Below, piece after piece: positions 1-11,215 of a stretch of DNA of 23,208 bases. The translations under genes were made by a program, and so were the position numbers. The DNA is from a virus (lineage: Duplodnaviria; Heunggongvirae; Uroviricota; Caudoviricetes): IMG/VR virus record IMGVR_UViG_3300031417_000379; one strand, given 5' to 3'. The notes under the pieces were generated by a model that was not told the DNA's origin, searched no databases, and saw nothing but the letters and a program-made list of their open reading frames with translations. Positions within the stretch are counted from its first letter, which is position 1; each line of letters opens with the position of its first letter.

Positions 1-90
1 AGCGATCGAAAGGCCAACAGTTGCGATGGCGAGAGTTGCGATGGCCACGCGGGTACGGCCGGTGAACTTAGAGCGAATCGAGGTGGTCAT
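1..90 (-). CDS. Partial CDS (N-terminus only, runs off the left edge); probable secreted or exported protein
   Basis: Manual translation from ATG at 90: MTTSIRSKFTGRTRVAIATLAIATVGLSIA. A basic N-region is followed by a hydrophobic stretch. RBS-like AAGGAG lies upstream. Not in the supplied ORF track. Confidence 0.75.
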   Translation of the reverse strand, partial: MTTSIRSKFTGRTRVAIATLAIATVGLSIA

Positions 91-183
91 TTAGAGCTCC
101 TTGGAGAGGTGATGAGTTTGTCCACTGTTCGACTTCAAGCTGTTTTGAGTGTCTCGAATGTGAATTGTGGCAACGATGAGCTA

Positions 184-213
184 TTTCTAACACAATTTAA
201 CATCACATGTCAA
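184..213 (-). promoter_or_regulatory. Sigma70/SigA-like promoter for the gene starting at 90
   Basis: Minus strand TTGACA (213-208), 18 nt spacer, then TAGAAA preceded by TGT. The intergenic region is AT-rich. A 7-bp inverted repeat GTCAACA-tt-TGTTGAC (209-224) overlaps the -35. Confidence 0.5.
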
Positions 214-240
214 CATTTGTTGACTGAGTATCTTTAAACG

Positions 241-276
241 CCTCTGAGATAGCAGGTTTGCCTGCTATCTCAGAGG
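241..276 (-). terminator. Intrinsic terminator-like hairpin
   Basis: Perfect 16-bp stem CCTCTGAGATAGCAGG / CCTGCTATCTCAGAGG with a 4-nt loop, 14 nt after the stop of 291..1067. Only a short T tract follows. Confidence 0.75.
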
Positions 277-290
277 GTAGCTATTTAATT

Positions 291-1067
291 TCACCAGCCC
301 CAGTGACCGGTGTAAGCACCGAGAACAGTCGAGAATATTCGTACGATGAGTGTTAGTAGCACAAAGATTGCGAAGACCACCGAGATACTGAATCCAGCTA
401 TAGAGAGGTAGCGAGAGAAGCGATCATCCGGAACTCCTTTAGAATTCACCCAACCGAGACCTGAGAATAACAGCCCTGCTGGGAAGAACGCAAATGCTGC
501 AAAGATGCCGAGCCAGGCAAAGACGTTAAAACGTCCTCTTCGGCCCGGCCAGGCCTGGAAATAACCAGGAGCGACGATGACACCGTTCTCAGTATAGGTT
601 GCTTCGTTTGACGCGCGCTTATAAACCTTCTTTACACGCTTGTAAAGCTTTTTCTCAGCCTTCAAGTCTCTTTGCTCGTCGTAGATCGTTGCACCTTTGA
701 AGAACTCTTTAAGCTTTTCGTGGTTTTCATCGCGGGGTTCATGATCCGCATGCTCATCTTTAGTGTTAGCAGGTGGTTCTTCGTGAACTCGTGGCTCTTC
801 AAGGTGAATATCTGACTTACGAAGCGGATAGTTAATGTCTTCGAAAGAAGTACTAGGATCAGCTTGTGAAGCTTTTTCAGCTGCTGGAGCAGGAAGCTTT
901 ACCGTAGCTCCATCCTCTAATACCTGAGCCCCCTCCGGCGCAACCGGTGGCTTGCGAGGTGCTCGAGGCTTTCTTGGTGCACGTGGCTTGGGAACCGGCG
1001 TGGTGGGAGCTTCGTTTACCCCAGTGTCTTTAATAGGGCCGTCGTCTTCGTTCTCTAGATCTGCCAT
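291..1067 (-). CDS. Membrane protein with a Pro/acidic disordered N-terminus and two C-terminal TM helices (DUF4190-like)
   Basis: RBS GAGGAGGA. Hydrophobic segments FNVFAWLGIFAAFAFFPAGLLFSGLGW and YLSIAGFSISVVFAIFVLLTLIV. PRAPRKPRAPRKP repeat near the N-terminus. Confidence 0.7.
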   Translation of the reverse strand: MADLENEDDGPIKDTGVNEAPTTPVPKPRAPRKPRAPRKPPVAPEGAQVLEDGATVKLPAPAAEKASQADPSTSFEDINYPLRKSDIHLEEPRVHEEPPANTKDEHADHEPRDENHEKLKEFFKGATIYDEQRDLKAEKKLYKRVKKVYKRASNEATYTENGVIVAPGYFQAWPGRRGRFNVFAWLGIFAAFAFFPAGLLFSGLGWVNSKGVPDDRFSRYLSIAGFSISVVFAIFVLLTLIVRIFSTVLGAYTGHWGW

Positions 1068-1190
1068 TGTATCCTCCTCAGTGATACAGCGAATATCGCA
1101 AAAGAATATGCAAGAACACGTCTATCCTATGAGAAGGATGATATTCAATTGCAGAACTATGGCCATGTTCACCGAACGATAGGATTCACA

Positions 1191-2255
1191 ATGAGCGATC
1201 AGGCTAATAACGAAGCCAATGAGGCTTCAAGCCTACTTGTAATGGCTCGCCAGCTTCATGAGCAGCACATCACCGCGGCGCGAGAGGAGGCCGCACAGAT
1301 TGTAGCCGTAGCACGAGCTGAAGCCGATCGGCTCGTGAACGACGCAACAGCCGAGGCGAGCAGCCTCGTGACGAACGCTCGCAACGAGCACGATGGACTT
1401 CAGGCTTCTATTGAAAAGCTTCGTGAGTTTGAAGGCGCCTACCGTGCTTCGCTCACCGACTACCTCCGAGGACTGCTCTCCGAAGTTGCTCCTGAGGACG
1501 AACCTTTTGAGCCAGCATCTGTCGATGAAGCACCTTCACAGTCTAACGCGTTCCTCGCAGCTTCTCCTGCTTTTGCCGCAAACCCGGCTTTCTCAGAGGA
1601 GCCGTTCGTTGCTCCGACCGCTGAAGAAGAGTCGCAGCCGGTTGAGCCGGAGACACAGCCGCAGGTTACAGCTGAGTTGACCGATGAAAGTTCAGCTTTT
1701 GAAGCGGATGATGACGAGGGCTTCACCGCTGCTGACTTTGACAGTTACGCAGAACCTCAGCCAGGCGAGGATGTGGTGCTCGATTTCCCAGAAGCGGACG
1801 AGGCTGACGCTCCTATGGACGAAACGCCAGCCGATGATGAAGCGGTGCAGTTACCAAGCTTCGATCAGGCTCCTGCAGAAACAGAAGACGACACTGTAGA
1901 GGCACTCCTGGCAAGTGAGGCAGAGCTCAAGGCTGAAACGGATGCTGTGCCAACGGTTGATGTTGAACAGTCCCAGAACGACAATAGTGCGGAAACTCTC
2001 CGAGAGCTCCTCAATGACCTTGACGGCACTGAGGTCGATGACGACGGTGGTTCTTCCACTGAGGGTGAAACACCGTCCGAAGAACAGCCGAAGTTCCCAA
2101 GCTTTGCGGCTGACGACGAGGCGGTGAGTGCTGAGGATCTCAACGCTACTGATGTTGATGCCCCAGAGGCGGAGAACGAGAAGCCTGAAGCTAATCACGA
2201 GGTTGAAGAGGAGCCTGAGAAGAAAGGCCCCTTCAGCTTCTTCTCTCAGAAGTAA
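1191..2255 (+). CDS. DivIVA/Wag31 C-terminal coiled-coil-like protein with a long acidic disordered tail; lacks the N-terminal DivIVA domain
   Basis: SSLLVMARQLHEQHI and IEKLREFEGAYRASLTDYLRGLLSEV resemble the conserved C-terminal block of actinobacterial DivIVA (recalled pattern LRxFEREYRxxLKxYLExQL). Start reassigned from TTG 1149 to ATG 1191, which has TAGGAT 5 nt upstream. Confidence 0.7.
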   Translation: MSDQANNEANEASSLLVMARQLHEQHITAAREEAAQIVAVARAEADRLVNDATAEASSLVTNARNEHDGLQASIEKLREFEGAYRASLTDYLRGLLSEVAPEDEPFEPASVDEAPSQSNAFLAASPAFAANPAFSEEPFVAPTAEEESQPVEPETQPQVTAELTDESSAFEADDDEGFTAADFDSYAEPQPGEDVVLDFPEADEADAPMDETPADDEAVQLPSFDQAPAETEDDTVEALLASEAELKAETDAVPTVDVEQSQNDNSAETLRELLNDLDGTEVDDDGGSSTEGETPSEEQPKFPSFAADDEAVSAEDLNATDVDAPEAENEKPEANHEVEEEPEKKGPFSFFSQK

Positions 2256-2264
2256 GGCTAAAAT

Positions 2265-2302
2265 CTAAGAAGGCCAGGCGCAATTGCGCCTGGCCTTCTT
2301 AG
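2265..2302. terminator. Perfect 38-bp palindrome between convergent genes; probable bidirectional terminator
   Basis: CTAAGAAGGCCAGGCGCAATTGCGCCTGGCCTTCTTAG is its own reverse complement. It lies between the stops at 2255 (+) and 2320 (-). Confidence 0.8.
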
Positions 2303-2319
2303 TAAGAGCTACCGACGGA

Positions 2320-2871
2320 TCAGAACGGAGCCTTCGAGAGCTCGCGGTGATAGCGAGCCTGATCGAGCGATGCGCGGATGTCATCCATCGCTTCGTGCCC
2401 GTAACCCTTGTGGAACTTCTTGCGACCATCCGTGTTCACCAGGAATTCCTCGATGCTGCTCATGTCTAGACTGCGGTAAGAGAGGTGAGCAAAGCTCTTC
2501 GGCAGGAACTGACGCATGAAGTTACGGTCGAGAGTGATGGAGTTACCTCCGAAGCGAAGCACGCCCGGTTCCGGCTGCAGCTCCTTCAGCCACGCAGAGA
2601 AGGTCTCATCGAACTCTTCGTGAGTAGGATTTGCCTCATCAGAGAGCTGATCCCAGAGCCCGGTCTTCGTGTGCATCTCGCGGACGAAGTCGTTGGCGTG
2701 CTCGTAGGCAGCCTTAGCAGCACGAGGAGCGAAGTAGAACTTCGTCTCGATCTCGCCAAGCTCGTTGAAGTCAGAGTCGGTGACGATGGCAGCGAGCTGG
2801 AGGAGCGTTGCTCCCGGAAGCCTCTCGTCCACGTCGTTGGTCTCCACGTCGGTCCAGGCAATGCTTGTCAT
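2320..2871 (-). CDS. orn: Oligoribonuclease (Orn-like DEDDh 3'-5' exoribonuclease)
   Basis: IAWTDVET (ExoI), LLQLAAIVTD, EMHTKTGLW, GGNSITLDRNF (ExoII), HLSYRSLDMSS, HEAMDDI (ExoIII). Strong RBS GAAGGAG. Confidence 0.9.
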   Translation of the reverse strand: MTSIAWTDVETNDVDERLPGATLLQLAAIVTDSDFNELGEIETKFYFAPRAAKAAYEHANDFVREMHTKTGLWDQLSDEANPTHEEFDETFSAWLKELQPEPGVLRFGGNSITLDRNFMRQFLPKSFAHLSYRSLDMSSIEEFLVNTDGRKKFHKGYGHEAMDDIRASLDQARYHRELSKAPF

Positions 2872-2891
2872 GTGTTTCTCCTTCTAAAGCT

Positions 2892-2900
2892 ACGGTATCA
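2892..2900 (-). promoter_or_regulatory. Extended -10 promoter (TGa-TACCGT) upstream of orn
   Basis: TGn-TAnnnT pattern. The same GTGATAC core recurs upstream of the Pnkp and rIIA genes. Confidence 0.5.
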
Positions 2901-2919
2901 CACAGCGGTGACATAGAAT

Positions 2920-3273
2920 TTACTTAAGCTTGATTACATGCCCAACGATGCTAGAAAGATCTTCAATAGCAGCATCACGCCACTCTTTCTGAACCTTCTT
3001 GTCGAATTCCCACCAGTCACCGGTGCTGCGATCGGGGAGTCTCTTAAAACCTGGGCCTCCGACATGGCTCTTGAACCACTCTTCGAGTTGCACCACGTCG
3101 AAGAGATCAGGCCCTGCGAACTTGAATGGGACCAGTAGATCAAGGTTGTAGTGGTGCCCATCCCGAAGGTCAACTCCACCCATGCGACTCAGCTCAAGAC
3201 AGAGGGCGTAGATCGATTCGTACTGGCGGAACCAGCCGGGACCTTCTTCTTTAATAAACAGCGAGTATTTCAT
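2920..3273 (-). CDS. Hypothetical protein (117 aa)
   Basis: ATGA 4-bp overlap with the upstream ATP-grasp gene. It fills the gap in the operon. No motif recognised. Confidence 0.7.
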   Translation of the reverse strand: MKYSLFIKEEGPGWFRQYESIYALCLELSRMGGVDLRDGHHYNLDLLVPFKFAGPDLFDVVQLEEWFKSHVGGPGFKRLPDRSTGDWWEFDKKVQKEWRDAAIEDLSSIVGHVIKLK

Positions 3274-4082
3274 CGGCCCTCCGTTAGTGTCTTAAGCTTA
3301 CCCCAGAGGAGCTTGGGGTTGTTAGCCGAAAGTCCTGCCATCACACCATCGTTAAGCTCTACAACTCCCCAGGTTCCGTCAGGGTATTCAGCAAGATCGA
3401 TGACGTAGAAATCAGCGAGATGCTCAGTTCGAGCTACAGCATTACCAAGCGCTTTCTCAAGCTTACTTGGATCAAGTGGTCGAACCGCCATAGCCGCTTC
3501 GTGGTTGGACCAGTAGATTCCTTGGCTCACCACCTGACCACGATAGACAAACACGCGAAGCTCGTTGAAAACCGGCCTACCATCTACAGCTGTGCTCACC
3601 TGACGATAGCGCTGGAACGGTCTGATGTAAAGCTCCTGGCTCCCGACTGTCGAATCAGCATAGTTCGCGCGGATCACATCGAGGAGCGCTGTCTTGTTCG
3701 GAGCGTAGCAGGCCTCAAACCAGCGATGCTTGAGCGAGTTCGTCTCGCCCTTGACAAAGTACTCTCCTTCAGGGATGCGTGGAATCTCGTCTACACGATA
3801 GGCTGCAGGGGTAAGCCCATCGAGAAGACCGATCCAGGTCGAAAGGTCTGCGATGGCTCGATGCTGTCGGTACGTGTTGATGAGTTGAGAACCAAGAGTG
3901 ATTGTCTCTTGCTCAAGCTCTTTGCCGAACGGAAGCATACGGTACCGAGGAAGCACCAAGCTTCTAGCCGGGATCTTTGCTAGGTTCGACCCCGCCGGTA
4001 CTCCAAGCTCAGCAAAAGTCTCGAGATCCTCCTGGAGGCCTGGGTAGGCTGAAATCATGGAAGGATGGTAGAGATAAAGCAT
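3270..4082 (-). CDS. ATP-grasp domain protein, R2K/DUF4343-like
   Basis: YFVKGETNSLKH, ELRVFVYRGQVV and FYVIDLAEYPDGTWGVVELNDGVMAGL (ExN-type terminal motif). RBS AAGGAAAG. Confidence 0.8.
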   Translation of the reverse strand: MLYLYHPSMISAYPGLQEDLETFAELGVPAGSNLAKIPARSLVLPRYRMLPFGKELEQETITLGSQLINTYRQHRAIADLSTWIGLLDGLTPAAYRVDEIPRIPEGEYFVKGETNSLKHRWFEACYAPNKTALLDVIRANYADSTVGSQELYIRPFQRYRQVSTAVDGRPVFNELRVFVYRGQVVSQGIYWSNHEAAMAVRPLDPSKLEKALGNAVARTEHLADFYVIDLAEYPDGTWGVVELNDGVMAGLSANNPKLLWGKLKTLTEGR

Positions 4083-4105
4083 TAGCTTTCCTTGTGTGAG
4101 CGTTC

Positions 4106-4504
4106 TTAGTTCTTAAGGCCAAGATCTGTTTTGGTCTCGAAGGCGGACCAGTAAGGGCGCGCCTCGACTGCTCGAGTGATGGTGGGTCGAAGGCGCTCGA
4201 AAAGCTCCTCAGCTGTGAAGCCTGCAAAATCCACGTGCTGTTCGAAGGCTTCGAGCAGATCTACGAACTTTGCACGCTCTTCTGCACCATCGGCTGTAGC
4301 CCGCACAACGGCGGGGGCTGCGAGGAACACAGCGTAGGCTACGCCGATGAGATCAGCGTTTGGAGAGATCGCAGCCGTGTAGTGGCAACCACACGAGCAA
4401 CTCTCCGGTTGGGTCGCCGCACAGAAGCGATGCTTCTCGGAGATACAGAAGAGACTGATGTGTCGTTCCCCGAGGTTCCGTGAACCGAGCTTAGTGATGT
4501 CCAT
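4106..4504 (-). CDS. Hypothetical protein with a Cys/His-rich probable metal-binding segment; probably leaderless
   Basis: FCISEKHRFCAATQPESCSCGCH. Start reassigned to ATG 4504, 6 nt after the -10 TACCAT. Confidence 0.7.
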   Translation of the reverse strand: MDITKLGSRNLGERHISLFCISEKHRFCAATQPESCSCGCHYTAAISPNADLIGVAYAVFLAAPAVVRATADGAEERAKFVDLLEAFEQHVDFAGFTAEELFERLRPTITRAVEARPYWSAFETKTDLGLKN

Positions 4505-4510
4505 AGCTCT

Positions 4511-4554
4511 ATGGTACACCACTACACAAACGGCGGCAACAAGCTCTTACTCTT
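4511..4554 (-). promoter_or_regulatory. SigA-like promoter TTGCCG-17-TACCAT with a conserved upstream element
   Basis: -35 at 4539-4534, -10 at 4516-4511. The 18-mer AAGAGTAAGAGCTTGTTG (4554-4537) matches 22672-22655 at 17/18 positions in the same register. Confidence 0.65.
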
Positions 4555-4590
4555 TTCCGCAACAGGACCATAACTGTTGCGGAAAAGAGT
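4549..4590 (-). terminator. Terminator-like hairpin
   Basis: Perfect 17-bp stem ACTCTTTTCCGCAACAG / CTGTTGCGGAAAAGAGT with an 8-nt loop, abutting the stop of 4590..5141. Confidence 0.7.
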
Positions 4591-5141
4591 TAAACGAGAG
4601 TAGTCTCGTCCTTCGGGACGTTGTGAACATCGCCGTCGGTGAAGCCTAGTGTTACGTGAAAGTCAAGCTTCGGAAGCTGTAGCTGACGGCGCCAGCCACT
4701 AGCAGCATCGGATCGTACAACCGCGTACCAAGCCTGGGACTTACTGCTAGAAGCTGTTCCAACCCCAATGAGACTAAGGTTAAACGCATCGCCACGAGGG
4801 ATTAAGAATTCCTTACGCTTACGAAGCTCTCGGAACTCTTTTGGGGTGATAAACGTGGCGTGGTAACGATCTTCACCGTCACGCTCAGCTTTCTTGTTCG
4901 TAATGAGCTCAAAAAGCTCTGAAGCCATTCCGCTTCGAAGCTGGTTTAGTGCCGGTGCTAGGACCTCTGGCTGAAGCTCGACTCCCACGTACGAGTTCTT
5001 AAGCACTCGTGGATAACCAGCGACCTCGATAGGAGCCATCGGCTTCACAGCCTCGGGATCCCAGTGTGAGAAGCGGCACCGTTCGGGAGAAGTGCATCGC
5101 GCCATAGTGCCTAGCACCGGCGAGTAGTGCAGTTTGGCCAT
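4590..5141 (-). CDS. 2H phosphoesterase with a degenerate N-terminal MAKxH Cys/His module
   Basis: Two HxT motifs: RYHATFI and DFHVTLGF, followed by DVHNVPKD. True start is ATG 5141 (MAKLHYSPVLGTMARCTSPERCRFSH), 1 nt after the Pnkp stop; the ORF-track extension to 5390 overlaps Pnkp. Confidence 0.8.
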   Translation of the reverse strand: MAKLHYSPVLGTMARCTSPERCRFSHWDPEAVKPMAPIEVAGYPRVLKNSYVGVELQPEVLAPALNQLRSGMASELFELITNKKAERDGEDRYHATFITPKEFRELRKRKEFLIPRGDAFNLSLIGVGTASSSKSQAWYAVVRSDAASGWRRQLQLPKLDFHVTLGFTDGDVHNVPKDETTLV

Positions 5142-5142
5142 G

Positions 5143-6312
5143 TTAGACTCCGCAGTTGTCGTGAAGAAGCTCTCCCTCGGGGAGGTCACCTCCACAGACG
5201 AGACAGAAGCCCTGACCGGTGATATCGTCCACAGTCGACTCAACGTAGCTCTCCTGCGGAAGCCCAACCTCGTGGAACGGAACTCGCGACACCGAAATGC
5301 CGCGCTCGTCCCAGACACGGATCGAGCTCGGGCGGTCATCGATGGCGTGAACCACGACGAAGCCCTCTGCCTCAAGCGAAGCCACAGCATCCTTCTTCAC
5401 AGCGTAGTCGCCTCGGTAGTCGCCGGCACGTGCCATGATAAGTCGCGAGATAGGAGCACCCGACCCCTGGACAAACTCGATGGTGCTCTCAGCATTCCCA
5501 TCCACACGACCGGTGATCGCGAAGACGGTGAGGCCTCCTGCACGAAGCTTTCGGACGAGCTCAAGCACCGACGTGTTCACCGGCGCCGTGGAGGACTCAT
5601 TGTAGAAAGCGTCCCAATCCTTCTTGTCGTTCGGCCCAAGCGCGCCGATGTAGCGGTCGATGAGCTCGTGGTTGAACGCAAGGGTGCCGTCCAGGTCCAC
5701 GATGGCCACTCGGCTACCGAGGATCGGATAATCCGCCTCGAGCAGCGCGTTGAACGTGTCGAGTCGGCGCATCCCCGGCGTGTACTTGTCCACGAAGAAC
5801 ACACCTCGGTCGTTGAAGACAACGTCCTTGATGTGACCGTCCGCCGAGTAGACGTTCTGCCCCATACGGTCGATTACCGAGTCAGGGACCAGGCGACCTC
5901 CGCTAGCACCGCGAAGCGCGTTGCGACGCTTCGCCTCGGCGAGCGGCACGTCAATCGTACGGATGTCCACCGAAGCACCGTAGTTCAGCGCCTGCTGGAT
6001 GCCCTTGAAGAGGAACTTGGGGTTCGTGTTGGTGTTGTCGTTGATGATCGTCTTGCCAGCACGAAGGGCCTCGACCGTCATCCGGTCAGCCTCGACAGTG
6101 ACCTGCGACTCGACCTTCTTGTCCGGGCTTCCGTTGTGGTACTTCGCACCGGCGACAGCAGTTCGCAGGTCGTCACGGTTGACCACAACAGCATCCGGGT
6201 ACTCTCGAAGAAGCTGAGCAGTGATGGTGGACTTTCCTGCGCCGGGGACGCCGACGAGGAAGATCACTCGCGGAGTCGCCTTTGATCGAGCGAATCCGTT
6301 GATCTCAGCCAT
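5143..6312 (-). CDS. pseT: Polynucleotide 5'-kinase / 3'-phosphatase (T4 PseT-like; P-loop kinase plus HAD phosphatase)
   Basis: Walker A GVPGAGKS, VVNRDDLR, NDNTN, AKRRNALR. HAD motif I IVDLDGTLA, ITGR, K-K, AIDDRPS. C-terminal CLVC...H..C segment. Confidence 0.9.
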   Translation of the reverse strand: MAEINGFARSKATPRVIFLVGVPGAGKSTITAQLLREYPDAVVVNRDDLRTAVAGAKYHNGSPDKKVESQVTVEADRMTVEALRAGKTIINDNTNTNPKFLFKGIQQALNYGASVDIRTIDVPLAEAKRRNALRGASGGRLVPDSVIDRMGQNVYSADGHIKDVVFNDRGVFFVDKYTPGMRRLDTFNALLEADYPILGSRVAIVDLDGTLAFNHELIDRYIGALGPNDKKDWDAFYNESSTAPVNTSVLELVRKLRAGGLTVFAITGRVDGNAESTIEFVQGSGAPISRLIMARAGDYRGDYAVKKDAVASLEAEGFVVVHAIDDRPSSIRVWDERGISVSRVPFHEVGLPQESYVESTVDDITGQGFCLVCGGDLPEGELLHDNCGV

Positions 6313-6367
6313 TACATTCTCCGTTAGTAGACCTCAGATGAGGTGGTGTGGTTTGCGGTACTTGTCC

Positions 6368-6376
6368 ACAGTATCA
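6368..6376 (-). promoter_or_regulatory. Extended -10 promoter (TGa-TACTGT) upstream of Pnkp
   Basis: TGn-TAnnnT in the 73-nt intergenic gap; GTGTGATAC core as upstream of orn. Confidence 0.5.
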
Positions 6377-6385
6377 CACTATCTG

Positions 6386-7084
6386 TTAGAAGCGAAACCG
6401 ATCTACAACAGTGTTGTAGCGCTCTACGGCAGCTGCACAAAGCTCCTCAGTGAAGTCGCGAGAAGCGGTCACCGGAGTAAGCCCGTCTTCACTCTTGATG
6501 ATGAAGCGGCCGTTGAACGTGTTCTCGTCGATGGTCTCCCAAGGAGTACCGACCAGGATGTCCCCGCGTTCGCGAGTAGAAACGCCCATGAGCTCCTTGT
6601 GCGATCGCAGATGACCAGCTGCCATGCTAGTGGCGTTCTTGCGGCAATCGAGTCGGCGCCAAGTGATGTACTCGCGAATTGCTTCCGGTGTATCGAGCTC
6701 TAGTACTCGACCATCAAACGCCGGAGTACCCACCACGCCGGGCACCGCCTTAGTGAAGGCAACTGCAGCTGTGGCCGCAGCCACCGAAACCAGCTTCTGA
6801 ATACGGCGACCGTATGGAAGCTGAGCAACTCGATCGGAAACCACTACAGAGATCTCGTCCGAAGCCACGTAGGTTACGAGCGAGTTTGGGAAGAGCTCAC
6901 GAGCCACCGCAGTTGCGGCCTCGTTCATAGCGTGTTCGAAGACATCGCTAAACGGCTTCTCGAACTGACGAGTAAGCTTGCTGAAGTTTGAACCGTCGAG
7001 ACGGATCACTGCGATACCGTTGGCGCGCAGGCGAACATCGAGATCTGACTCGGCGTCTTTGAAGATCGAGAAATCGGAGTGCAT
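6386..7084 (-). CDS. tRNA-His guanylyltransferase Thg1-like protein (3'-5' polymerase family)
   Basis: VIRLDGSNFSKLT, YVASDEISVV, RRIQKLVSVAA, AFDGRVL, YITWRRLDCRKNA. Start reassigned to ATG 7084, 7 nt after TGa-TAGCAT; the ORF-track start at 7162 overlaps the upstream gene. Confidence 0.9.
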   Translation of the reverse strand: MHSDFSIFKDAESDLDVRLRANGIAVIRLDGSNFSKLTRQFEKPFSDVFEHAMNEAATAVARELFPNSLVTYVASDEISVVVSDRVAQLPYGRRIQKLVSVAAATAAVAFTKAVPGVVGTPAFDGRVLELDTPEAIREYITWRRLDCRKNATSMAAGHLRSHKELMGVSTRERGDILVGTPWETIDENTFNGRFIIKSEDGLTPVTASRDFTEELCAAAVERYNTVVDRFRF

Positions 7085-7091
7085 GAGGCTC

Positions 7092-7100
7092 ATGCTATCA
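7092..7100 (-). promoter_or_regulatory. Extended -10 (TGa-TAGCAT) positioned for a leaderless Thg1 transcript
   Basis: The -10 ends 7 nt before ATG 7084. No SD sequence is evident. Confidence 0.5.
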
Positions 7101-7110
7101 CAGGTTTCTG

Positions 7111-8295
7111 TTAGAGCTCTCTTCGGAAGGTAAGCGAACTGTCTGCTACCTCTACCGCCCATTCGCCGCCGAGATTCTTATGGAGTGAGGCGAGTAGAAG
7201 CTCGCTAAAGCGCTGCACTTTAGGATTAGAGGACTTAAGGACTTCGTCACTATAGACACAGAAAAGGATTGGAGCCCCGATGCCGTCTGACTTCATAATC
7301 TCGGGCTCATCGTCCAGCGTGAAGAGCCCTGCCTCGTCAGCGGCGATCTCAACCTCAGCAGCTAGGAACGGTAACGGTTCGTTCACGTAGCGCGAGACCT
7401 CGCCTGCTGCAATCGCAGCCTCACGAGCGGCTGTCTCTCGAGTCTTTCGCTCTGCTTCTGCTTCGCGCCAGGCCGTTTCCCGAAGTTTCGTCTCTTCAGC
7501 TTCACGCTCTTCACGTTCACGATCAGCCTGGCGCTTAGCCTCGAGCTTAGCTTCGAATGGATTAGCCTCTTCGGGCGTCTCAAGTGCTGATGCTAGATCA
7601 GCTTCGCTCTCTCTACGGAAGATGATAGCGTCCTCAGCTACAACCGAGGCGAGCCAGACCCCTTCGAAGTTCTCAGCTAGCTTCTGAAGTACATGAGTAG
7701 CTACAGCATCATCGTCAGTGGGGAATTCGCTCCCAGTAAGGATGAAACTTTCTAGAGTAGCTGGATTCTCTGGATCCACGTTATCAGCAAGATCAACGTG
7801 AGAGAACTCATTGACAGGATAGACATCTTTGATGAGTGAGAGAATCGCCTGGTGGATTCGGAACAGCCGGTACTCTGTACTAGCTTTCTCTACTGAGTAG
7901 AGACGTAAGTAACCAGATGCAGCATCGTCCACATCATAGATGAAAGCATAAGGCGAATCTTTAGGCTGAAGCTCTGTATTAGCCGCTTCGGTAAAGTCGA
8001 GTGCTAGTCTCTGAGTAAGGCCCTCGATCTCCTGACGTACGTCAAGTTCCTCAGGATACTTTTTCGGCCAGATGAGCTTAAAGAATCGCTCGATAGCTTT
8101 CGAGTTGAGTGCTGCGTTCTTCCCGAGGGTAGGAAGCTGAAGCTGATGAGCCCACTCAGAGTAAAGCAAAGCGGTCTTCTGAGCCTTCTTCGGAGCCATC
8201 ACCACAGTGTAGATCAGCACCCCAGCCGCTAAAGCGATGAGTACACCGATAGCGATTGCAGCGTTCCCTACGGTGAAGATACCGGATAGGTCCAT
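7111..8295 (-). CDS. Membrane-anchored hypothetical protein (N-terminal TM helix, charged coiled coil near the C-terminus)
   Basis: AAIAIGVLIALAAGVLIYTVVMA followed by PKKAQK; E/R/A-rich helical segment. RBS GAAAGG. Confidence 0.75.
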   Translation of the reverse strand: MDLSGIFTVGNAAIAIGVLIALAAGVLIYTVVMAPKKAQKTALLYSEWAHQLQLPTLGKNAALNSKAIERFFKLIWPKKYPEELDVRQEIEGLTQRLALDFTEAANTELQPKDSPYAFIYDVDDAASGYLRLYSVEKASTEYRLFRIHQAILSLIKDVYPVNEFSHVDLADNVDPENPATLESFILTGSEFPTDDDAVATHVLQKLAENFEGVWLASVVAEDAIIFRRESEADLASALETPEEANPFEAKLEAKRQADREREEREAEETKLRETAWREAEAERKTRETAAREAAIAAGEVSRYVNEPLPFLAAEVEIAADEAGLFTLDDEPEIMKSDGIGAPILFCVYSDEVLKSSNPKVQRFSELLLASLHKNLGGEWAVEVADSSLTFRREL

Positions 8296-8330
8296 GCTAG
8301 CCTAAGCCTTTCTGCGGTTGAGCTTAAAGC

Positions 8331-9071
8331 TCAGCCCTCGTTTTGAGTCTTCTTGTCGCCGACGTTTACGCCTTCACCGGCGAAGACATCCACCGTAGGA
8401 GCAATGGTGTCGTCCAAGGCGTCGTTGAACTGTAGGAAGCGCACTCCCATGGGAGCGGCTGCGTCCTTTGGAGTAGCTACAGTAAGTGTTGCTGAACCAC
8501 CGGCTGCGTTAAAGATGCCGGCGGTATCACCGCTGACGATGTAGGAAGTTGCCCCGGTACTGCTAACTGGCCAGATAACTGGAGCTTTAGACTTCACGAT
8601 CCCGTCTTTAAACCCTGACTTGTATTCAGCGGTGACAGTCACTGTATAGGTTTTTAAATCTGTAGCTTCGATTTCGGTGGGCTGCGCTTCACCTTCGTCG
8701 TTCAGTTTGAGTGCAAACACCTTAGCCGAAGCAAGCTCTCCAGCAGGAGTAACTTTCGAAGAGGTCACGTGGAAAACAGTTGTCTGGTCACCGGTAACGT
8801 CATCACCGCTAATAGGATCAGTTGTTTGCACGTTCTCTGAAATGTACTTCACATCTTTAGAGCCATCCTGACGAGTAGTGTCGTTCGGGTCAACGTACCC
8901 GTTAGCTCCAGGATTGATCGTAGTCTGATTCGTCGGCTCACGGAACTGCGTAGACGGCTTTTCTCCGGTCCCATCCGAAGGAGCAGGAGCATTATCTCCG
9001 GTTGAACATCCGGCGATAAGAAGAGCCGCGACGAGGGTAACGCCGACACCGACGGTACGACCTAGCTTCAT
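8331..9071 (-). CDS. Putative lipoprotein
   Basis: MKLGRTVGVGVTLVAALLIAG-C has a basic N-terminus, a hydrophobic core and a lipobox-like IAGC. A Pro/Thr/Gly linker and a beta-rich domain follow. Confidence 0.8.
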   Translation of the reverse strand: MKLGRTVGVGVTLVAALLIAGCSTGDNAPAPSDGTGEKPSTQFREPTNQTTINPGANGYVDPNDTTRQDGSKDVKYISENVQTTDPISGDDVTGDQTTVFHVTSSKVTPAGELASAKVFALKLNDEGEAQPTEIEATDLKTYTVTVTAEYKSGFKDGIVKSKAPVIWPVSSTGATSYIVSGDTAGIFNAAGGSATLTVATPKDAAAPMGVRFLQFNDALDDTIAPTVDVFAGEGVNVGDKKTQNEG

Positions 9072-9139
9072 AGAACTACCTCTTCAAAGGAAGACTTCAG
9101 CTTACAGATCAGTAAGCCTGTAGCCCTATATCGCTTCGG

Positions 9140-11215
9140 TCACCGGCTAGAGTCGGCCTCAAGCGCAATTTTCTGGGCTCGTACGCGGGCTGCTTCGGTG
9201 ATGCGCTTGGTTCGGAAGGTCTTGTTCTTGTACAGGAACTCCTGAAGTCTTCCTAGAGCCTTCATCATCATTACAGCATCCGCGGTTGCGGCATGCGCTC
9301 CTGCGTAAGGAACCCCGTTATCCTCCGCGAACGACTGTAAGGATGAGTCATCCGAGCGAGTCATCAAGAAACTAGCAAGCTTGCGCGTATCAAGGATAGT
9401 GATTTCACCGGCCTCTTTCGCCTCAAGGTAGCCGTTGAGATGAGCGGCGAAGAAACGATCTTCGAAGCTTGCGTTGTGAGCGACCAGCGTGCCGGACTTC
9501 AAAAGTTCGAGCACGTCGTGCTGAACCTTCGGGTCATCAAAGCGAGGTGCACCGACGATCATATCCGAAGAGATACGGTGGATGTCGTACTCCCCGAGTC
9601 CAACGCCAGCAAGTGCCTCAGTCGGAACATCGTGAAGGGTGCTGTAAACAACCTCCGTCTCCCCGTCGGAGTTAAGACGGGCGATGCCGGTCTCGATGAT
9701 TCGGCCGGTGCGAGGCGAAGTAGTAGTGGTTTCTAGATCAACTCCGATGAGCGGACGCTGTCGAGTGGAGGGGTCGTGCTGAGCAAAGACTGTGACAGCA
9801 GCACGCTGGAACTCGGTCTCAGTGAGCATTCGACCCTTTTCGACCTTGAGCGCCTCGATTGAGGTGACAAGCTGCTCCTTAGCCTCCGCGGGAGTAATGC
9901 CGGCGTAACCAGCGTAGACATCAGCAATGGCGTCGTAGTCGTTGGTGAGCTTCATGCCACGCTTACGTCGAGTTCGGATCTCTTCGCCGGCCTTGAGCTT
10001 CGCTCGCTTCTCCTGCATAGAAATCCAAAAAGCATCCGTCGCTGAAATCATCTCTTCGATCTCCGCGCGCAGTCGAGGATCGTCCAAGGAGAAGTTATAC
10101 TCCCGGTAATCGTTGTCGTCGAGTACCGCCACAAGCTTACCGTAGCTAAGGCCACCGTTATAAGCGTACCAGAGCACCTGCTTGCGATACCCCGCCGGTA
10201 CGCCGAAGATCCCAAGGGCTTCGGGGCCCCACTTTGAAGGATCTGAACCGGTCTTAATCTCGAGGATTCCCTCGGGTACGCCTGACTCGTCGAGGAATAG
10301 GCCGTCAAAGTTAGCGTGACGATACGGTGTCTTCGAGTTGTGCCAGGAAGTCTTGCAGAAAGCGACACGAAGCTCAGGGTGCTTAATGGCCACCGTCTGA
10401 CGGATGTACTCCTCCCAGGCGTTACCTCGACCGATGCCGGAGCGCAGATCCCAGCTATCGGGCGGAGTTCCGTTGAGCTCGTCAAGGCCAAGCTTGGAGT
10501 TCACCACACGAGAGTAGTTTGTAGAAGCCCATTCCTTGTCTACGCGAAGGATGGCTCCCACATCGGAGCCACCGATACCGCTGGCGCGAGCAGCATGCCA
10601 CTCCGGAGAGTTTGTTTCGTACTCGCCAAGAGCCTCGAGATCGTTGAGCTTCTTTTCAGTGAATTCTACGAAGGTGCCATCGGCTCGTTCGATGCGCTCC
10701 TGAAGGATAGAGGAGGCAAGCGCTGCCTGAGCTGTTAGTGCTCGGTACTCGTTAAGCTGTGCCCAGAGGAAACGCATGGTTTCGAAGCGCTCGCGGAACT
10801 CGAGCGAGAACTTGCGGATGGCGAATCGCGCCTCCTTAGCCACAGCTTTGTTCACGAGCTTTGAACGATTACGAGCAGCCTCAAGTTCGTTGGCCAGGTG
10901 ATCGACCTCGACCTTGAGCTCCGCACGACGAGCAAGAGCATCACGGTAAACCTGAGCGTTAGCACGCTGTTCAACCATCGATCGGAGGCCACTGTAATCT
11001 TGCGCCGCGACGAGACGAACAAGCTGTGCCTGAGCTTCGCGCTCTTTCAAAGAGCTAACGATTGAACCTGAAAGCTTCTCTCCTGCTGTCTGAGTGAGAA
11101 AGCTAAAAATCCCAGCATCCTCCGTCGTAAGAACCAATGTGTAGGAGTCGACGGGCGAGCTATCTTTGTACTCTGCTACTTCGCCGGTGGCTACGTTCAA
11201 ATGGAGCTTGGTCAC
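9140..11215 (-). CDS. Fusion protein: N-terminal coiled coil, YqaJ/lambda-exonuclease-like domain and C-terminal DEDDh (DnaQ-like) exonuclease
   Basis: YqaJ motifs: WHAARASGIGGSD, GNAWE, HANFDG, LEIKT, YRKQVLWY. DEDDh motifs: GVDLETT, HNASFEDRF, HAATADA. GTG start with RBS AAGGAG. Confidence 0.85.
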   Translation of the reverse strand: MTKLHLNVATGEVAEYKDSSPVDSYTLVLTTEDAGIFSFLTQTAGEKLSGSIVSSLKEREAQAQLVRLVAAQDYSGLRSMVEQRANAQVYRDALARRAELKVEVDHLANELEAARNRSKLVNKAVAKEARFAIRKFSLEFRERFETMRFLWAQLNEYRALTAQAALASSILQERIERADGTFVEFTEKKLNDLEALGEYETNSPEWHAARASGIGGSDVGAILRVDKEWASTNYSRVVNSKLGLDELNGTPPDSWDLRSGIGRGNAWEEYIRQTVAIKHPELRVAFCKTSWHNSKTPYRHANFDGLFLDESGVPEGILEIKTGSDPSKWGPEALGIFGVPAGYRKQVLWYAYNGGLSYGKLVAVLDDNDYREYNFSLDDPRLRAEIEEMISATDAFWISMQEKRAKLKAGEEIRTRRKRGMKLTNDYDAIADVYAGYAGITPAEAKEQLVTSIEALKVEKGRMLTETEFQRAAVTVFAQHDPSTRQRPLIGVDLETTTTSPRTGRIIETGIARLNSDGETEVVYSTLHDVPTEALAGVGLGEYDIHRISSDMIVGAPRFDDPKVQHDVLELLKSGTLVAHNASFEDRFFAAHLNGYLEAKEAGEITILDTRKLASFLMTRSDDSSLQSFAEDNGVPYAGAHAATADAVMMMKALGRLQEFLYKNKTFRTKRITEAARVRAQKIALEADSSR

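Follow-up and report, generated by a model that had tools for sequence, protein, structure and literature searches.

A headless, acid-tailed homologue of the DivIVA/Wag31 C-terminal domain encoded by a giant phage-like element

The stretch of DNA considered here (the window, 23,208 nucleotides of IMG/VR virus record IMGVR_UViG_3300031417_000379) carries on its plus strand a gene for a protein of 354 amino acids, P0001, which begins directly with a homologue of the C-terminal domain (CtD) of DivIVA/Wag31. DivIVA/Wag31 is an essential organiser of polar growth in actinobacteria, including mycobacteria, corynebacteria and streptomycetes. The N-terminal head of that protein (about 60 amino acids with the motif F..TKFREGYDQDEVDDFLDEV, responsible for membrane and septum targeting) is missing from P0001. 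A preliminary description of the window, made from the letters alone, had spoken of a phage; giant phage-like element is the better reading. The gene and the parts of its product are as follows.

1191–2255, plus strand: headless DivIVA-CtD gene (P0001), an open frame with its stop codon included and a start shared with relatives; 16 family members aligned.
1181–1184, plus strand: AGGA, similar to a ribosome-binding site, 6 nt 5′ of the ATG; read from the sequence.
1191–1490, plus strand: residues 1–100, homologue of the DivIVA/Wag31 C-terminal coiled coil (CC2/CtD), from hhalign, phmmer, the reversed-sequence control, the AlphaFold2 helix and column conservation.
1491–2219, plus strand: residues 101–343, acidic intrinsically disordered tail with short conserved motifs, from composition, family alignment and a low predicted local distance difference test score (pLDDT).
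2220–2252, plus strand: residues 344–354, basic-aromatic end KKGPFSFFSQK, from the family alignment and its likeness to [FY][QKR]GFGGN.

The reading frame has no internal stops, and the ATG at 1191 was taken as the start instead of the TTG at 1149 because every relative opens with MSDQ or MTDQ. Residues 1–100 hold the motifs LLxMARxLHExH and REFExxYRxSLxxYLxxLL with a central segment of 11-residue repeats between them, and the strings quoted in the preliminary description are all present (SLLVMARQLHEQH at residues 14–26, LREFEGAYRASLTDYLRGLLSEV at residues 77–99 and KKGPFSFFSQK at the end). From the alignment of 16 sequences AlphaFold2 predicts a single helix spanning residues 3–98 with pLDDT >90, followed by a disordered tail with three short helices at residues 180–187, 236–251 and 266–275. 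The tail was rightly called acidic; it comprises ∼255 amino acids, not ∼270 as first stated, with 30% D+E, 3% K+R, 10% P, 15% A and a net charge of −67. A transmembrane (TM) segment is absent from P0001.

By several comparisons we could confirm that the coil is DivIVA/Wag31-like. A phmmer search with residues 1–105 against 1.84 billion protein representatives gave 274 matches at E ≤ 1e-3. At least 79 of the best 150 of these 274 matches are headed DivIVAs with a canonical head of the MALTPEDVVNKRFQPTKFREGYDQDEVDDFLDEIV type, which align in one ungapped stretch (query positions ∼8–100) at their own C-terminal end; the few giant coiled-coil proteins among the matches are aligned in several partial stretches. 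On these 79 headed DivIVAs, which had been preselected as phmmer matches, a hidden Markov model (HMM) of the element family scored a median of 76.8 bits and a minimum of 46.6 bits, and on their reversed versions it scored at most 19.9 bits, with shuffled sequences at about zero. Therefore composition and periodicity do not account for the match. When the 16 element domains were compared by hhalign with 40 DivIVA CtDs, the alignment extended over 100 columns with no gap at a probability of 99.8% and an E value of 9e-30. In NCBIfam the best match is NF050102 (DivIVA_Wag31) for P0001 (9e-7) as well as for the family members P0003 (2e-11) and P0013 (1e-9), with Scy and V-ATPase E next, and the model is matched in its C-terminal half (positions 124–252 of 256). 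The curated cut-offs are not reached (20.1 vs 28 bits for PF05103 and 29–44 vs 260 bits for NF050102), which is expected because half a protein is compared with models of whole ones.

It could be argued that the coil is a generic alanine-rich one, similar to the stalks formed by ATP synthase b or V-ATPase E/G, and has no specific kinship to DivIVA. In fact P0001 alone scores nearly equally in Pfam with DivIVA (PF05103, 20.1 bits) and V-ATPase_G_2 (19.2 bits), both below the cut-off, and a profile search of the PDB gave generic matches only (a designed bundle, V-ATPase E, ATP synthase b and HflK), all to the central segment. The lack of a DivIVA match in the PDB is explained by the fact that, to our knowledge, no actinobacterial CtD structure has been solved. 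The stalk matches are restricted to the central segment (residues ∼20–75), whereas DivIVA CtDs align end to end with both flanking motifs included. The preliminary description had named as decisive whether the coil scores better against DivIVA than against generic coils; among the 16 family members, 12 match the Pfam DivIVA model and 4 match V-ATPase_G_2, and generic coils match in the centre only. As the reversed-sequence control and the NCBIfam results also contradict a generic coil, we regard this explanation as hardly credible. An identity as ATP synthase b or as a V-ATPase E, G or H stalk was rejected, with scores far below the cut-offs, matches in the central segment only and no TM segment.

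The central segment has a structure of its own. Insertions and deletions of the coil within the element family amount to exactly 11 or 22 residues (columns 50–72 of alignment A2), and the hydrophobic pairs I36–V37, L47–V48 and L58–V59 are spaced by 11 residues. Thus the helix centre is of the hendecad type, and this explains the weak matches to ATP-synthase stalks and to Scy. The same insertions and deletions indicate that the DivIVA CtD has, in its centre, a register of the hendecad (right-handed) type.

Conservation was also compared column by column. Between the element family and the cellular CtDs the Spearman correlation is 0.61 over 101 columns; 17 columns are strongly conserved in both families, 14 of them with the same residue, including H23, F80, E81, Y84, R85 and L96. 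At the level of sequence, the homology of residues 1–100 to the DivIVA/Wag31 CtD is therefore established, with a resemblance far beyond chance. The preliminary description had also pointed to an LLxLARRLHEEH-type motif of Micrococcales DivIVAs. This motif is real (for example, LLQLARKLHEEH in Frigoribacterium), and scanning species genomes for LL[QAV][ML]AR[QK][LTM]HE returned Microbacteriaceae and other Micrococcales, among them Rhodoluna, Frigoribacterium, Lacisediminihabitans and Glaciihabitans, with 29–38% identity to the query. Headed DivIVAs are encoded at 76 of the 79 scan loci that have a complete 3′ end.

The head is missing from P0001, as the preliminary description had noted, and also from its surroundings. 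An HMM built from 79 DivIVA heads found none in the six frames of the 23-kb window and of six related loci (best E 0.11), and TIGR03544 (DivIVA domain) matches the Demequina DivIVA and none of P0001, P0003 and P0013. The six-frame search thus shows that no DivIVA head is encoded within the window or the related loci. The P0001 gene lies outside a dcw cluster, its neighbours being the genes of a protein with two TM segments and of an RNase_T exonuclease.

P0001 belongs to a family. We found 16 cluster representatives of 289–434 amino acids. All of them start with the CtD, continue with an acidic tail whose net charge ranges from −48 to −86 and end with an aromatic motif. The CtD is the better conserved part, with a mean column identity of 51% vs 30% in the rest of the protein. 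These long members are found on large contigs in phage-like contexts. In a quick maximum-likelihood tree, rooted at the midpoint only, they form one group (support 82, not starred), which is adjoined by a clade of short headless proteins of 115–175 amino acids (support 98), and the long and short proteins together are nested inside a group of cellular DivIVA CtDs supported at 96. The short members are also encoded on large phage-like contigs, one of them beside the genes of a polynucleotide kinase-phosphatase (PNKP) and a 2H phosphoesterase (2H-SAK). A relative of P0001 with 40% identity is encoded no more than 40 bases from the end of a contig of 697,753 bp (L002, JGI 3300055142, Ga0540642_0000002); the contig represents a phage-like element of very large size or else a chimeric assembly.

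Literature and full-text searches returned no description of a phage- or element-encoded DivIVA homologue. Against the 50,697 phage records of INPHARED, megablast with 8 kb of the window gave no DNA match and tblastn with the whole of P0001 gave none either; tblastn with residues 1–105 gave one marginal match (E 0.03), so that no cultured phage with the gene was found there. The family profile found no match in the IMG/VR viral_contigs. The sequences define a phage-only family of headless DivIVA-CtD proteins which had not been described before. What is new is the headless, acid-tailed form; the DivIVA family itself was already known, as were effectors of mobile elements that are directed against DivIVA.

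The tail contains more than acidic residues. In the family alignment the motifs FD.LAEPDAS.AED, FPSF(D/N), DTVE.LLA.E, TDAVPTVDV and L..L.DL.GTEVDDDGGSS recur; a further one, ESFD.IL, recurs in the family but not in P0001. An ESM Atlas search with the tail gave no usable match. At the very end the consensus is K.[KR]FSFFGKK or [KR]GFFG..K, with F350, F351 and K345 invariant or nearly so. The preliminary description had seen in this end a possible replacement membrane anchor. This idea is not supported, as the end resembles the aromatic-glycine end of Microbacteriaceae DivIVAs: the element ends FSFFG and KGFFG fit F-x-[GF]-F-G, as do the DivIVA ends. The C-termini of Microbacteriaceae DivIVAs are of two types, [FY][QKR]GFGGN or TFQI (L074, 5641–6573, and 78 loci within L009–L088), and we know of no described function for this end motif. 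For example, the Frigoribacterium DivIVA, whose gene stands in the canonical order ftsZ-ylmE-sepF-ylmG-divIVA, has a non-acidic tail of 82 residues which ends with SFRGFAGN. Thus, judged by its likeness and with the reservation that it is too short for a statistical test, the terminal motif is probably an inheritance from DivIVA and not a new anchor. A minor alternative is an amphipathic membrane tag as in SepF or MinD; the N-terminus of the Frigoribacterium SepF (MANPLRKTMVYLGL) lends it little support.

Long acidic tails are also found on cellular DivIVAs. The Demequina capsici DivIVA (P0136, 470 amino acids) has a tail of 295 residues with a net charge of −43 after its CtD. Likewise, P0136, P0096 and P0068 are all cellular headed DivIVAs, with acidic disordered tails of 214–295 residues and net charges of −36 to −51. 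Between the element tail and the Demequina tail no homology beyond composition was detectable. Since both the tail and the end motif have counterparts in cellular DivIVAs, the simplest history is that the element captured two-thirds of a divIVA gene of Micrococcales type from its 3′ side, with CC2, the disordered C-terminal domain and the motif at the end, and that acidification and new motifs arose later.

The surroundings of the gene comprise the following features.

291–1067, minus strand: gene of a two-TM protein of 258 amino acids, divergent to the P0001 gene; the N-terminal part of the protein is basic and rich in Pro, Lys and Arg (PRAPRKPRAPRKP), and two hydrophobic segments lie in its C-terminal part.
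1068–1190, no strand assigned: divergent intergenic region of 123 bp, from the gene layout; presumed site of both promoters.
2265–2302, no strand assigned: perfect GC-rich hairpin of 17 bp between convergent genes (dG −40.2 kcal/mol, z −7.5).
2320–2871, minus strand: RNase_T exonuclease gene, convergent and 3′ of the P0001 gene.

The P0001 gene is a lone plus-strand unit between the minus-strand genes at 291–1067 and 2320–2871, as had been stated in the preliminary description, which also gave the gene a terminator of its own. The 17-bp hairpin follows the gene; it has no T-tract on the plus strand, and for this reason a consensus terminator scan made no call at the 3′ side of the gene. The hairpin is likely a bidirectional terminator without a U-tract on the plus strand; on the minus strand it is followed by ATTTTAG. 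Within the divergent region a promoter scan found one weak sigma-70-like match only, on the minus strand.

The window further encodes rIIA, rIIB, a RecE-like/RNase_T fusion, PNKP, a 2H phosphoesterase, Thg1 and an R2K ATP-grasp protein. A block of RNA-repair type (RNase_T, ATP-grasp R2K, 2H-SAK, PNKP and Thg1; 2320–7162, minus strand) adjoins the P0001 gene, and the adjacency to PNKP and 2H-SAK recurs beside a short headless homologue on another contig (L004, 2994–6417).

This neighbourhood bears on two other functions that could be assigned to P0001. Firstly, the polyanionic tail could be the functional part, imitating nucleic acid or acting as a decoy for those basic proteins of the host that bind DNA or RNA, while the coil would merely provide dimerisation or tetramerisation. 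Such a role would suit the strongly negative tails of all long members and a gene beside a block of RNA-repair or anti-defence type (PNKP, 2H-SAK, Thg1, ATP-grasp, rIIA/rIIB), the more so as a short homologue likewise adjoins PNKP and 2H-SAK. However, the short headless relatives (130–170 amino acids) keep the CtD with little tail, so that the CtD is the constant part, and it is also the most conserved one. Moreover, the tail has specific conserved motifs beyond its charge, and the cellular Demequina DivIVA carries a strongly acidic tail as well. We therefore consider a decoy function quite unlikely. Secondly, P0001 might be a structural or transfer-apparatus component (of the virion, of ejection, or associated with a type IV secretion system) which resembles DivIVA by ancestry only and has no role at the pole. 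Long acidic disordered proteins do occur among the internal proteins of virions. Nevertheless, the gene is placed among genes of nucleotide and RNA metabolism and rII genes, not among structural genes, and no structural PHROG family matches P0001, which makes such a component very improbable.

The host is likely an actinobacterium, as suggested by sequence relationships: the nearest relatives from isolated phages are all from actinophages, namely Streptomyces phages for rIIA (26–32% identity) and Propionibacterium and Gordonia phages for the RecE-like part, and the exact LL.MAR.LHE pattern is present in Microbacteriaceae DivIVAs.

The features of P0001 might give a hint how the protein acts. 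We suggest that it joins the host DivIVA scaffold via its CtD, where it would either poison the assembly or serve as an adaptor; we give this proposal about an even chance of being right. The giant phage-like element would enter an actinobacterial cell, where P0001 would be made. Its CtD would form mixed dimers or tetramers with the host DivIVA, and P0001 would thus enter the polar scaffold. There the acidic brush and the tail motifs might break up or cap the DivIVA network (poison subunit); alternatively, the tail motifs might recruit proteins of the element or the host to the pole (adaptor). The two-TM neighbour may act as the membrane partner of P0001. We infer co-assembly because P0001 keeps the CtD together with the most conserved positions of the CtD. 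In Corynebacterium glutamicum the Wag31 CtD alone gives a single aggregate or focus without membrane or septal localisation (PMC13463852). CC2 is essential in filamentous Actinomycetota (Kitasatospora), and models place an antiparallel dimer–dimer (tetramerisation) motif at the C-terminal end of CC2 (PMC12585849). That a phage can profit from acting on DivIVA has a precedent in Fruitloop gp52, which, according to PMC7474061, binds Wag31 and excludes a DivIVA-dependent phage.

The complex of the element domain with the DivIVA CtD of Kocuria palustris was predicted with a score of 0.43, the best of three controls reaching 0.00; at least 95% of the contacts agree between runs, with a partner pLDDT of 84 or more. 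Of 80 solved complexes 58 attain the pass mark of this prediction, and so do 2 of 110 mismatched pairs. The prediction shifts the odds for co-assembly only slightly. The preliminary description had proposed a co-polymerisation with host DivIVA, and the published CtD self-interaction, the conserved interface positions and the weak complex prediction lend this some, if weak, support.

Several points weigh against co-assembly. Passes at a score of 0.60 or below comprise 7 of the 80 solved complexes and both passing mismatches, so that a pass in this range is wrong more often than right unless the pairing was likely beforehand. In addition, the predictor may pair homologous coils through likeness alone, and the Kocuria palustris CtD is a stand-in for that of the true host. 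Position 30 is G in 95% of the cellular CtDs and A or S in the element family. The identity to any cellular CtD is only 29–38%; the capture is thus old, and since then the domain may have come to pair with itself alone. A tail with a net charge of −67 is hard to square with a place near an anionic membrane. The contigs of the only RNA run, X19, cover 1–294, 5249–6118 and 8830–9039, and none lies over the P0001 gene, which is uninformative either way.

If the CtD pairs with itself only, P0001 could be an autonomous scaffold or hub of the element, with clients recruited by the tail, a tether provided by the two-TM protein and no contact to DivIVA. The model for such a hub is PopZ of Caulobacter, a polar hub in which a helical domain for oligomerisation is combined with an acidic, disordered linker rich in Pro and Glu and with a short helix that binds clients. 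P0001 follows the same logic, with an oligomerisation domain, an acidic Pro/Ala/Glu-rich disordered region and short conserved helices. The resemblance is an analogy of layout, without known sequence relation, in another phylum and with the opposite domain order. The old divergence from the cellular CtDs would permit an orthogonal pairing, the divergent arrangement with the two-TM gene is kept in three lineages, and the focus formed by the isolated Wag31 CtD (PMC13463852) shows that self-assembly of such a domain is feasible. On the contrary, the positions conserved in cellular CtDs are kept, so that there is no visible bar to mixed assembly. The prediction of a heteromer passed its mark, which counts for little, and no client is known. 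In our estimation an autonomous hub is rather unlikely, though more probable than the other alternatives to co-assembly with host DivIVA.

The two-TM neighbour deserves attention in this context. It shares 34% identity (E 3e-43) with its counterpart in the related locus L001 (3733–4629, minus strand) and 40% identity (E 3e-18) with that in locus L006 of a distant subfamily (7311–7904, minus strand), and in all three lineages examined (window, L001 and L006) its gene is divergent to the headless DivIVA gene. Searches of Pfam, PHROGs and NCBIfam assigned it to no family. Beside the short homologue in L007 lies a protein that was considered as a further relative and turned out to be unrelated. 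It is possible that the two-TM protein is the membrane partner of the headless DivIVA, and for anchoring it is the better candidate than the terminal motif. Both proteins might even form an element-encoded orthogonal polar-targeting pair, in which the membrane protein would replace the head, the CtD would dock on the host DivIVA or seed beside it, and the tail motifs would recruit the element's machinery for replication or DNA transfer to the growing pole. Such a pair appears unlikely to us; if true, a virus or plasmid would here seize the polarisome of actinobacteria through molecular mimicry.

How does P0001 compare with known systems? With the actinobacterial DivIVA/Wag31 proteins (NF050102; PF05103; for example, Kocuria palustris WP_144792784.1, Demequina capsici WP_313541836.1 and Frigoribacterium sp. 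CG_9.8, L074 5641–6573) it shares a homologous CtD of ∼100 residues with the motifs H-[ED]..V and FE..YR..L..YL...L, and in many Micrococcales DivIVAs the CtD is followed, as in P0001, by a disordered tail with an aromatic-glycine end. In contrast to these proteins, P0001 has neither head nor intercoil linker, its tail is far more acidic (−67) and has conserved motifs of its own, and its gene is located on a mobile element and not downstream of sepF and ylmG in the dcw cluster. GpsB, the DivIVA paralogue of Firmicutes, is likewise a natural half of DivIVA with one DivIVA module and a different second part. GpsB is cellular, keeps the head and has its C-terminal domain swapped; P0001 is the converse. 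The CtD-only construct of C. glutamicum Wag31 also lacks the N-terminal domain, but this laboratory construct, in which both the acidic tail and the terminal motif are missing, was assayed in Wag31-depleted cells, not beside native DivIVA (PMC13463852).

Scy is a component of the Streptomyces polarisome and a partner of DivIVA. Its family (NF041483; PF28068) matches P0001 weakly and locally (E 4e-6, model positions 1044–1108 of 1293); both coils are alanine-rich with a non-heptad period, and P0001 carries a weak precomputed PF28068 label. An identity as Scy was rejected, as Scy has ∼1300 amino acids of repeats and P0001 a single helix of ∼96 residues, and the score of 24.7 bits compares with a cut-off of 1040. 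DivIVA outscores Scy in every member compared in NCBIfam (P0001, P0003 and P0013).

Fruitloop gp52 is the only documented case of a phage–DivIVA interaction that we found in the literature searched. This mycobacteriophage protein acts on DivIVA/Wag31 and changes the cell pole (Ko and Hatfull 2018, cited in PMC7474061). It is small and unrelated to DivIVA, whereas P0001 is, by its sequence, a homologue of a DivIVA fragment and would act by mimicry and co-assembly. If co-assembly is true, P0001 would stand for a new class of mobile-element effectors that imitate a subunit of the host cytoskeleton, in contrast to gp52, a binder without kinship to DivIVA; by plugging into the host pole scaffold, a mobile element would disturb the growth of its host in a novel manner. 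Because full-length DivIVA aggregates, it is difficult to find out how the CtD builds the polar network; a natural and evolutionarily tuned CtD-only protein would serve as a ready-made probe or inhibitor of CtD assembly. The family also highlights the conserved C-terminal aromatic-glycine motif of DivIVA, for which we found no described function.

Sequencing runs that contain the sequence come from phyllosphere, leaf-litter, plant and soil metagenomes of 12 studies. In one phyllosphere run (X1, window positions 1–10000) the word depth is ∼6000–10000, compared with 3–10 in other runs; either the element is extremely abundant there or the sample was enriched for it.

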